A stretch of 39,533 nucleotides of DNA from a virus (taxonomy: Duplodnaviria > Heunggongvirae > Uroviricota > Caudoviricetes): positions 1-39,533 of IMG/VR virus record IMGVR_UViG_2547132281_000008, one strand, 5' to 3'. This document shows positions 9,001 to 12,000 of this stretch, one piece after another. The first letter of the stretch is position 1. Each line of letters opens with the position of its first letter. The position numbers are program-made.

Positions 9001-12000
9001 ACAGGGAGAGACGTTTACCATCCACCAGGGCGAAGTTTCGGGTGCATGCCTAACGCCGCCACCCTTGGGGGAATAACACCGGCGCAGTGGCTGATGGAGG
9101 AATACAGGCGGGGAAAGGCGGCAGGATTTATCAAGTAATACCAGCGCGATAGCGCATTTTTTTACGCCTTGATAATTACCTGATGGGTAACAAAATATTC
9201 TAAACTCTATTGATTTCGTGTCTTATGTGGTTTTTAATTACCTCAGAGGTAAATCATGAGAAAACAGATACAGGCTCTTGGTCGACTCAAAACAGGCCAG
9301 ATGAACAAAACAGAATCTGCGTATTGCCAGCACCTTGAGCAGCGTAAACGTGCAGGGGAAATCGCCTGGTATCGATTCGAGGGTATCAAGCTGCGGTTAG
9401 CTGATAACACGTTTTATACGCCCGATTTCGCTGTGATGCTCGCCACCGGAGAGATGGAACTGCACGAAGTGAAAGGGGGATTCTGGACCGACGACGCCAG
9501 GGTGAAAACCAAAGTCGCCGCAGATCAGTATCCGTTCCGAATCATCGGGGTAACGGTTAAACCAAAGAAAGCAGGTGGTGGCTGGAACATCGAAGAGTTC
9601 TGAATCGACGATCTTTTTAGTTATCAATGTAATCAATAAGTTATGTGGATAAGCGAGGGTAAAGATGGAAAGTAATATCAAAGGGTTAGTTTCCGCCGGG
9701 CATGAGATGGCTTCGGAACTGAAAGCAGAATGTGGTGCCGTTGATATGCGCAGTGTGGCAAAGCTGATCAGCGATTTGGCAACGCAACTGGAAGTGCAAC
9801 TGGTGCGTGCTAATGCGCTGGCCGAAGACCACCAGAGAGCGACTGAGTCAATTAAGCAGGCTGATGCGGCTGTTAAGTTGGCACACGAGAAGTTTTCGGT
9901 GCTGGCTGCGGAGAATGCGAGACTGAAGGCGATATGTGAGGATCGCCGCACGTTCATTATGAATGGCGTGCAGCTTGGTTTTATCAAGGTGCCAACAGTG
10001 GAAACTGATCCAGCTCTTGAAACAATTCGTATCGCCATATCACCACAAAAAACCACTCCAGCTACCGATGCTTTTCTGGCTGAAGTGCGGGCACAGGGTG
10101 TGGATGCTGCTATAGGAGCTGCAAAAAATCTGGTGGCCCAAGAATATGAGTATAAGGATTTCAAAGCGGCGCAGAGTGATTGCTGTATGCACCCTGGTTC
10201 AGACTTGGTAGGGAAGGTTGAAATGACTGAGTGGTTAGTTGACTTTGCTGCCCAGCTTCGCAAGGGAGGGAAACAGTGAGCAAGATTGACTATCAGGCAC
10301 TGCGAGAGGCGGCACAGAACGCGGAAGATTTAGGTGGGATTAAGAATTACAAGCGAGCTGAGCAAGCTGTTGCCGAATTTGAGTCCTTAATAACGCCACA
10401 CATTGTGCTGGCGCTGCTGGATGAACGGGAAAGAAACCAGCAATACATAAAACGCCGCGATCAGGAGAACGAGGATATTGCGCTAACGGTAGGGAAACTG
10501 CGTGTTGAGCTGGAAACCGCAGAGAAGCGCATTGCAGAACTGGAAGCACGGGAAATATCGCTCCCAGAACGTAGCAGCATGCTTCATCGAACAGATTTTC
10601 ACGAGGATTACCAAACGGTAATGGCATACAAAGTTTCTGAGGTCATCGCTGCAATCCGCGCCGCTGGCATTCGCATCAAAGGAGAGTGATATGGCGTTAA
10701 CACACCGCGAACTCTGTCAGATTCAGAGGGTGGAGATTAGACCATGACAAACTTCAGGCGAGCTTATATTAACCGGCGTGGTGCAACGCGTGTAGTAATA
10801 GTTTTGCGACATTACGTGATAAAAATTCCAACATTTAAATCATGGAAACTATTTTTACATGGATTGCTGGCTAACTTGCAGGAACACCAAATGTCGACAA
10901 TTAACGATGCCGCATTATGTCCTGTGATATCAGGTAGCAGAATAGGATTATTTGTGATAATGCCGCGGTGTGAGCCTGTAAATCATAGGGGGTTGTTTTT
11001 TACAGAGTTATGCAGATTGAAAATAACTGGAAAACTTCCTGAAGAATTTTATTTAAGAGATGCCAAGCCAGAGAATTTTGGATATCTCAAATGCCGACTT
11101 GTTAAATTAGACTATGGAGAGTAACTAACTATGACCACTATTACCAAAGAGCGACTGCTGACAATTAAGCAGTGGCGCGAAACATACGGACCTGGTAGCA
11201 ACGTTGTACTGCCAGCAGAAGAAGCGGAAGAACTGGCACGAATTGCTCTGGCATCGCTGGAACGCGAACAGATTCGCCACGAGCATGCCAAATGGTCTGA
11301 CTCCACATTTGGCTGCGTTGGCCCCATTGGTCCACTGAAACACCTCTCAAAAGAGGCACTGGAAGCCGCAGCCGAACCAGAAGATCTTAGCGAGTGGGCT
11401 GATATGCAGTTTCTGTTGTGGGATGCACAGCGCCGTGCTGGCATCAGCGATGCTGAAATTACCGCTGCTATGGAAGATAAATTGAAGATCAACATGGAGC
11501 GCCAGTGGCCTGAGCCAAAAGATGGTGAGCCTCGCTTGCACATTAAAGAACCCGGCAACTATCCGGTAACTCCGGCTGGCTGGATAAGCTGTAGTGAGCG
11601 AATGCCGAACGATAAACAGTATGTTTGGTGTTGGGGTAAGTCTTACGGCTGGACTGAGTGCGATACCTTCGAAGGGTATTACGATTGGTCGAGAAACAAA
11701 TGGTGGGCAGTTACTGACGATGGGGAAGAGCCGGCATCGAAAGTAACCCACTGGATGCATCTACCAGAACCGCCTCAGGAGGTTAACCGTGGCTAACCTG
11801 CAACTTGCCGTTAAAGGTGAATATTTCGACCAGATGAAGTCAGGCGAGAAAACGGAAGAGTATCGCCTGTGTAATGACTACTGGAAAAAGCGAATTATGT
11901 TCCGGAAGTATGACCGCCTGATTATCACAAAGGGATATCCGAAGCGCGACGATTCCAGCCGCAGAATTGATGTTCCGTATGGCGGATATGAAATCAAGAC

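Follow-up and report, generated by a model that had tools for sequence, protein, structure and literature searches.

Positions 1 to 39,533 of the IMG/VR record IMGVR_UViG_2547132281_000008, a virus of the Caudoviricetes, were analyzed as one stretch of 39,533 nucleotides (the window), and one gene in this window raises the question of whether a protein that ends at the DFG motif can be a working kinase. A sequence-only reading of the locus had described an open reading frame (ORF) of 126 amino acids (aa) that contains YVIKIP, RDAKPEN and, 11 residues later, DYG, with the chain ending right after DYG and possessing neither an activation loop nor a C-lobe. All of these features are present: RDAKPEN comprises residues 105-111 and DYG residues 123-125, after which only E126 and the stop codon remain. 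We think it somewhat probable that this product, referred to below as the mini-kinase, is a stand-alone minimal ATP-dependent phosphotransferase of the protein-kinase-like (PKL) fold that acts on host targets. The gene and its motifs are located as follows.

10727..10735, plus strand: Shine-Dalgarno-like AGGGTGGAG, read from the sequence, with GGAG at 10732-10735, 8 nucleotides before the ATG
10744..11124, plus strand: complete ORF of the minimal kinase-like protein, 126 aa, ATG start, stop codon included
10780..10791, plus strand: G13-A-T15-R16, a beta1-beta2 turn replacing the Gly-rich loop (family consensus G-x-[TS]-R; model strands 8-10 and 16-20)
10816..10830, plus strand: beta3 motif V25-I-K27-I-P29, or [AV]-x-K-x-P (conservation; model strand 24-29)
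10843..10902, plus strand: alphaC-like helix, residues 34-53, with invariant F37, G40, N44 and E47 (conservation and model helix 34-53)
11059..11082, plus strand: catalytic-loop-like D106-A-K108-P-E-N111-F-G113 (conservation; aligned to HSDLKPAN of TTK and HRDxKPxN of CDK2 and PknB)
11110..11118, plus strand: D123-Y-G, the DFG equivalent (conservation; aligned to DFG of TTK, CDK2 and PknB)

Within these motifs, K27 (in YVIKIP, codon 10822-10824) is the putative ATP alpha/beta-phosphate-binding lysine, E47 its putative salt-bridge partner and D123 a putative Mg-binding Asp. The spacings between the beta3 Lys, the alphaC Glu, D-x-K-x-x-N and the DFG Asp are 20, 5 and 12 residues, which is close to the 19, 5 and 13 of PKA. 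The pattern [AV]xK...DxKxxN...D[FYLW]G occurs once in the six-frame ORFs of the window and in none of 200 shuffles, while its core, DxKxxN-x(8-16)-D[FYLW]G, turns up 0.01 times per shuffle.

Conservation across the family falls on precisely these residues. In an alignment of 171 homologues, with columns numbered according to the window protein, the catalytic positions are the most conserved columns: E47 is found in 171/171 sequences and both K27 and D123 in 169. Similarly high counts are obtained for R16 and G40 (169 each), G13 and N44 (168 each), P29 (167) and G113 (166), with position 15 occupied by T (151) or S (13), position 25 by A (116) or V (52), and Y124, G125 and K108 retained in 150, 149 and 143 sequences, respectively. 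Position 106 is D in 106 homologues and E in 63 (either one in 169/171), position 111 is N in 114 and S in 52 (either one in 166/171), and the two covary, with 105 D/N pairs, 51 E/S pairs and 10 mixed pairs (E/N 9, D/S 1). This is the pattern expected of coupled active-site residues, and it argues for an active site that is functionally coupled. Two active-site types can be told apart clearly, D-x-K-x-x-N in 105 sequences and E-x-K-x-x-S in 51; we know of no kinase subfamily with an E...S catalytic loop. V, S or A predominate in the column of R105, which makes the family "non-RD" and the apparent HRD arginine of the window copy coincidental. Thus, of the HRDxKPEN/DFG arrangement proposed by the sequence-only reading, the register with respect to the catalytic loop and DFG of Hanks kinases stands, while the arginine of HRD does not.

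A structure model obtained with AlphaFold2 from a 23-sequence alignment is a compact and confident monomer, with a predicted local distance difference test (pLDDT) of 88.9 and a predicted template modelling score (pTM) of 0.78. Its elements run from beta1-beta3 through a long alphaC-like helix (34-53), beta4/5, a helix (82-95) and a short helix to two strands ending at DYG. The top structural matches of the model are JAK (8.8), APH(2'') (8.6), TTK (8.4) and PknB (8.2), with 100-117 residues aligned, followed further down by Rio1/2, Bud32, ArkI/Ark1, OspG (6.9) and HopBF1 (6.5). Of the 60 matches listed, SAICAR synthetase (8.1) is the only one outside the PKL group, and its ATP-binding fold is related. 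The sequence-only reading had looked to Foldseek for a match to kinase folds, and such a match was obtained: PKL kinases are the only entries in the PDB list (best E 2.5e-3, TMq 0.55-0.61), and a search of BFVD returned phage homologues first and then annotated viral kinases. We predict with high confidence that the product adopts the PKL fold. The model has a bilobal core, a five-stranded N-lobe sheet with alphaC, a hinge, a catalytic loop and a beta7-beta8/DFG region; the beta3 Lys/alphaC Glu pair is conserved, and the catalytic-loop Asp and Asn and the metal-binding DFG Asp are in place. No activation segment and no C-lobe helices follow, as the chain stops right after DFG. The fold is a known one; what appears to be new is the architecture, a conserved kinase core that ends at DFG.

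This architecture is a family trait. PHROG 4301, annotated as "unknown function", matches the ORF with E=4e-40, residues 2-125 aligning to profile positions 34-167 of 225. An exhaustive hidden Markov model (HMM) search of 1.84 billion cluster representatives retrieved 1,374 homologous proteins at E<=1e-3 and 783 at E<=1e-10, members being counted as clusters at 50% identity. Nearly all of these are 110-135 aa long, and the profile runs out at their C-terminus. A word-indexed search gave 25 homologues, which range from 69 to 147 aa; only three of them fall outside 118-147 aa. The 171 collected sequences have a median length of 123 aa, and in 134 of them the C-terminus lies three or fewer residues from the DFG-like Asp. 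The few longer relatives (147-267 aa) have N- or C-terminal extensions that are mutually unrelated, contain no Pfam domain and bear no resemblance to a kinase C-lobe. Close copies of the gene differ mainly at synonymous positions, with 12 synonymous and 3 non-synonymous codon differences between the window copy and that of locus L010, and 13 and 4 between the window copy and a plasmid copy; the gene is under purifying selection. On the basis of this length distribution, the unrelated tails and the mainly synonymous differences, we reject the suggestion, made in the sequence-only reading, that the ORF is a truncated remnant, as ending at DFG is the norm in more than 1,300 clusters.

Neither the family and cluster databases nor full-text literature searches yielded a curated family, a name or a paper for these proteins. 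Intact copies are also under-annotated. For example, the copy at 8045-8425 of L001 (NZ_CP148392.1) is represented in RefSeq by a 77-aa product from an internal Met where the start is GTG, and for the copy in phage IME341 (L056, about 3480-3851) the record has only a 54-aa coding sequence. Both calls drop the N-lobe and thereby hide the family. Internal fragments of 54-77 aa are what annotation pipelines often call for these genes, and the family is concealed as a result.

Sequence comparison links the family to kinases over a short region. When a family HMM built from 147 sequences was compared with PDB sequences, TTK was found at E=0.009 and protein kinases made up 27 of the 28 matches at E<=10; the TTK alignment places D-x-K-x-x-N on HSDLKPAN and DYG on DFG. 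Using hhalign, CDK2, PknB and a six-kinase profile all aligned over one stretch of ~30 residues in a constant register, with E values of 0.006-0.1. Of the kinase reference sequences used with hhalign (PknB, PKA, CDK2, ERK2 and CK1-delta among them), those of PknB and PKA were confirmed against the PDB. A 209-aa relative from Ralstonia phage RP12, which reads LTDLKPSNIG...VDYG and is named a protein-kinase-domain protein in UniProt, gave an hhalign probability of 99.2%, and automatic "kinase" labels occur on a few family members. Similarity to kinases at the level of sequence is confined to the stretch from the catalytic loop to DFG. A PDB sequence search with the single protein returned nothing, and Pfam searches with 23 and with 147 members gave scattered sub-threshold matches only (e.g. 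PIP49_C and ABC1) and no Pkinase.

A number of observations weigh against an active kinase. No Pfam (at E<=10), NCBIfam or PADLOC family matches the ORF, and the hhalign comparison with the six-kinase profile is marginal (E 0.006-0.013, probability 3-6%, ~30 residues only). The GxGxxG Gly-rich loop is not present, the consensus there being G-x-[TS]-R-x-V; roughly a third of the family has E/S for D/N in the catalytic loop; and K108 is missing in some paralogues, including one in locus L002 that has no catalytic-loop Lys (WDNSMHNFG). Additionally, alphaF is absent. This helix is regarded as the organising core of the kinase fold and anchors both hydrophobic spines in all characterised kinases, and we are aware of no description of an active kinase whose chain ends at DFG. 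The proposed kinase assignment rests on the predicted fold and the conservation pattern; sequence statistics by themselves do not establish it.

Comparison with characterised enzymes helps to place the family. With Hanks-type kinases (TTK/Mps1, PknB, CDK2; Pfam Pkinase) the mini-kinase shares the beta3 Lys, the alphaC Glu, D-x-K-x-x-N and the DFG Asp. In contrast to these proteins of about 250-300 aa, it is about 120 aa long, has no significant match to a Pfam profile (Pkinase included), has G-x-[TS]-R for GxGxxG, does not conserve the HRD Arg and stops 1-3 residues past DFG. Subdomains VIII-XI, which hold the activation segment and APE motif, the alphaF Asp and the alphaH-I Arg within alphaF-alphaI, are missing altogether, and membership in the Hanks family proper is not upheld.

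A closer parallel in size is offered by OspG/NleH and HopBF1, which likewise are reduced kinase folds, made by parasites and acting on host proteins. These effectors keep helices after DFG and, to our knowledge, all characterised protein kinases, "minimal" effector kinases included, retain structure beyond that point. The crystallised chains of OspG, NleH and HopBF1 have 169-176 residues, whereas the phage family is about 50 residues shorter, as it is relative to the smallest solved chains among the structural kinase matches listed, and has nothing after DFG. Sequence identity is only 7-15%, and the effectors are secreted into eukaryotic cells while the mini-kinase acts inside bacteria. Neither C-terminal helices after DFG nor sequence homology to OspG was found in the mini-kinase. 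OspG and NleH are active kinases even though they are without subdomains VIII-XI, and OspG is fully active only with a host partner (PMC12756638).

The T7 gp0.7 kinase (T7K) and JSS1_004 are early, promiscuous phage kinases: they have many host proteins as substrates and disable defence systems (PMC13645617). They are the closest functional parallel to a kinase that by itself selects little among substrates. The kinase domain of T7K spans 242 residues and has a DPV motif (PMC13645617), and the protein also has a C-terminal DNA-binding/shut-off domain, whereas the mini-kinase has DYG, and hhalign detects no similarity between the two (probability 0.1%). The precedents of OspG/NleH and T7K/JSS1_004 make activity of the mini-kinase plausible, as analogies and not as homology.

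If the mini-kinase is indeed a minimal phosphotransferase, its chemistry would be carried out by kinase subdomains I-VII only, that is by the N-lobe beta-sheet, alphaC, the hinge, one alphaE-like helix, the catalytic loop, beta7-beta8 and DFG. ATP would bind between the beta1-beta3 sheet and the hinge, K27, positioned by E47, would touch the alpha and beta phosphates, and Mg2+ would be bound by D123 together with N111. D106, with K108, would then catalyse transfer of the gamma-phosphate to a hydroxyl group. The substrate face would be open, and canonical substrate docking should be impossible because the activation segment, the P+1 loop and alphaF-alphaI are missing. The substrate would thus probably be held loosely, resulting in promiscuous protein phosphorylation, or else the target itself, or a host factor, would bring it into position.

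Four other explanations have to be weighed against this one. The one that survives best, which we regard as unlikely, holds that the minimal PKL core is not a protein kinase and instead phosphorylates the end or a 2'-OH of a nucleic acid, or else a small molecule such as a nucleotide or a signalling molecule. The archaeal RNA kinases ArkI/Ark1 and the aminoglycoside phosphotransferases (APH) use a PKL fold able to phosphorylate RNA or small molecules, and both are among the structural matches of the model. The elements for peptide docking are missing, as noted above, and the family is mostly basic (median pI 9.1; the window protein has a pI of 9.85 and a net charge of +10), although ~5% of members are acidic. 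However, ArkI/Ark1 and APH are enzymes of 173-300 aa with helical, C-terminal substrate-binding subdomains that follow DFG and have no counterpart in the mini-kinase, no sequence-level match of the mini-kinase to either group was found, and the Lys of DxKxxN, K108, is a typical feature of Ser/Thr protein kinases. In the T4-like phage IME341 the mini-kinase gene is directly upstream of an RNA ligase gene (L056, 3853-4860), and in Felixounavirus SPJ41 it is near a DNA ligase. This adjacency is not systematic, as about 50 other loci contain no ligase homologues, and a general association with RNA or DNA ligases was rejected.

Somewhat less likely again is a non-catalytic nucleotide- or protein-binding module, such as a pseudokinase-like regulator, a sponge or an inhibitor, in which the N-lobe pocket binds ATP or a different nucleotide, or docks on a host protein. 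The absence of alphaF, of the activation segment and of a canonical Gly-rich loop would fit such a role, as would the variable catalytic-loop positions (the E/S subfamily and the loss of K108 in some paralogues) and a small size that is typical of phage sponges and inhibitors. Nevertheless, every residue that catalysis, and not binding alone, would require is conserved, D106/E and K108 would have no role in simple ATP binding, and the D/N and E/S pairs covary instead of decaying. Pseudokinases, moreover, have as a rule lost one or more of the residues K, D and D.

We consider it improbable that the mini-kinase is half of a composite kinase whose C-lobe scaffold is supplied in trans by a second copy (as a homodimer), by a paralogue or by an activating host protein, as E2~ubiquitin does for OspG. 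The surface that would face alphaF should be exposed, judging from the secondary-structure map, the requirement of OspG for a host partner provides a precedent, and 2-3 divergent paralogues lie close together in several phages. Nonetheless, only one copy is present in most phages, that of the window included; the model of the monomer is both compact and confident; and neighbour clustering found no gene family common to more than 2 of 41 non-redundant locus groups. A conserved partner gene, one form of the partner that the sequence-only reading had allowed for, and with it a split kinase, was consequently rejected. Domain fusions within the family are likewise uninformative, the one example being to DUF5522, and neither fusions nor neighbouring genes gave a hint of the substrate. 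In one Logan contig (DRR804570; L002, 2136-4852), three divergent paralogues are found within 2.7 kb, two of them directly adjacent; the Aeromonas phages PS1 and PS2 likewise have 2-3 copies.

Finally, decay of a once full-length Hanks-type kinase gene to a fragment, or a motif arisen by chance in a protein that is no kinase, is a very improbable and largely refuted explanation, for although the protein covers only part of PHROG 4301, a few relatives reach 185-267 aa and sequence-only statistics against kinases are weak, the family's DFG-terminal lengths, the unrelated tails of its longer members, purifying selection, the shuffling result and the confident, kinase-specific fold prediction all contradict it.

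The genomic surroundings bear on when the mini-kinase, taken as a phosphotransferase directed at the host, would act. The first 25 kb of the window are 97% identical to the temperate podophages phiv142-3, PAS61 and TL-2011b, and the genome is that of a phiV10/TL-2011b-like temperate phage. Features around the gene are as follows.

6205-6789, minus strand: helix-turn-helix repressor-like gene, facing the cro-like ORF
6944, plus strand: cro-like ORF
7541-8356, plus strand: HTH_36/DnaT-domain replication gene
8338, plus strand: lambda-P-like gene
9256, plus strand: DUF1064 gene
9665, plus strand: ORF without significant Pfam match
10276, plus strand: Ead/Ea22-like gene
10700..11130, no strand assigned: low-GC (guanine plus cytosine) cassette, GC about 0.37-0.42 versus about 0.50 in the flanks, between the Ead/Ea22-like and the pyrophosphohydrolase+DUF551 genes
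11131-11796, plus strand: dATP/dGTP pyrophosphohydrolase (PF04447, E=3.7e-42) and DUF551 fusion gene, directly downstream of the mini-kinase
12628, plus strand: small terminase subunit, preceded by small ORFs
13299, plus strand: 491-aa ORF without Pfam match, probably the large terminase subunit, as its position and the terminase annotated in related phages suggest

The mini-kinase gene is situated ~3.8 kb downstream of the cro-like gene, past the repressor/cro-like switch and the DnaT-like and lambda-P-like genes. It is on the same strand as the rightward early genes, and no terminator-like site is present on this strand between 7216 and 12117; because of this, it is presumably co-transcribed with the genes of the rightward early ("nin-like") operon. 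Transcription with these early genes, after those for replication and before those for terminase, would have the protein act during lytic growth. For this setting the substrate class and biological role that we infer are host components, most likely modified in the course of host take-over or counter-defence. A connection to the exclusion kinases of lambdoid phages had also been suggested. The kinase Stk of phage 933W is indeed a eukaryotic-like kinase of a lambdoid temperate coliphage, but it is a full-length protein of 348 aa encoded beside cI in the immunity region, whereas the mini-kinase belongs to the lytic early operon, and similarity between the two was not detectable (hhalign probability 0.2%); the connection is not supported. 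The HTH_36+DnaT-domain gene itself contains, at 7795-7947, six iteron-like 24-nucleotide direct repeats with the core CCCAAAAACGGGA and a spacing of 18-45 nucleotides, which probably mark the phage replication origin, as in lambda O.

The gene is an exchangeable, acquired accessory cassette, since its flanks match 288 phage records, in none of which the ORF is covered, and since its GC is low, falling to 0.37 inside the ORF in the composition profile. The slot between the Ead/Ea22-like and DUF551 genes (window 10600-11300) is filled by other inserts of about 0.7-1.6 kb in other phages (P7 and Stx phages) and looks like a hot spot for cassette exchange. In E. coli the gene is rare: of 5,426 complete genomes 2 have it, both times on plasmids, and an exact-cluster look-up places it on a few hundred assemblies. 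No close relative came up in two scans of one-genome-per-species bacterial contigs. The phages with relatives at roughly 30-55% identity are jumbo phages (121Q, PBECO4 and G17, as well as Erwinia, Aeromonas and Ralstonia phages), T4-like phages, a Felixounavirus and Pseudomonas phages of about 57-60 kb. Essentially this is a viral family, and one without a tie to lysogeny.

These results also allow a broader proposal, which we put forward tentatively and hold to be possible but doubtful: that the family represents the smallest autonomous protein-kinase-fold enzyme known. Its members, in more than 1,300 clusters from virulent and temperate phages, would comprise ~120 residues and subdomains I-VII with the C-terminus at the active site, would carry out phosphotransfer without an alphaF/C-lobe scaffold, and would serve as early, weakly selective kinases that rewire or disarm the host. 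If active, these proteins would be the smallest kinase-fold enzymes known, and the family would define the minimal catalytic unit of the kinase fold; at about 14 kDa, they would also be a useful scaffold for engineering. For phage biology, such activity would give a function to PHROG 4301, a widespread piece of phage "dark matter" that is found in jumbo, T4-like, Felix-O1-like, siphovirus and lambdoid phages, and may constitute a second, unrelated class of phage kinases beside the counter-defence enzymes of the T7K type.

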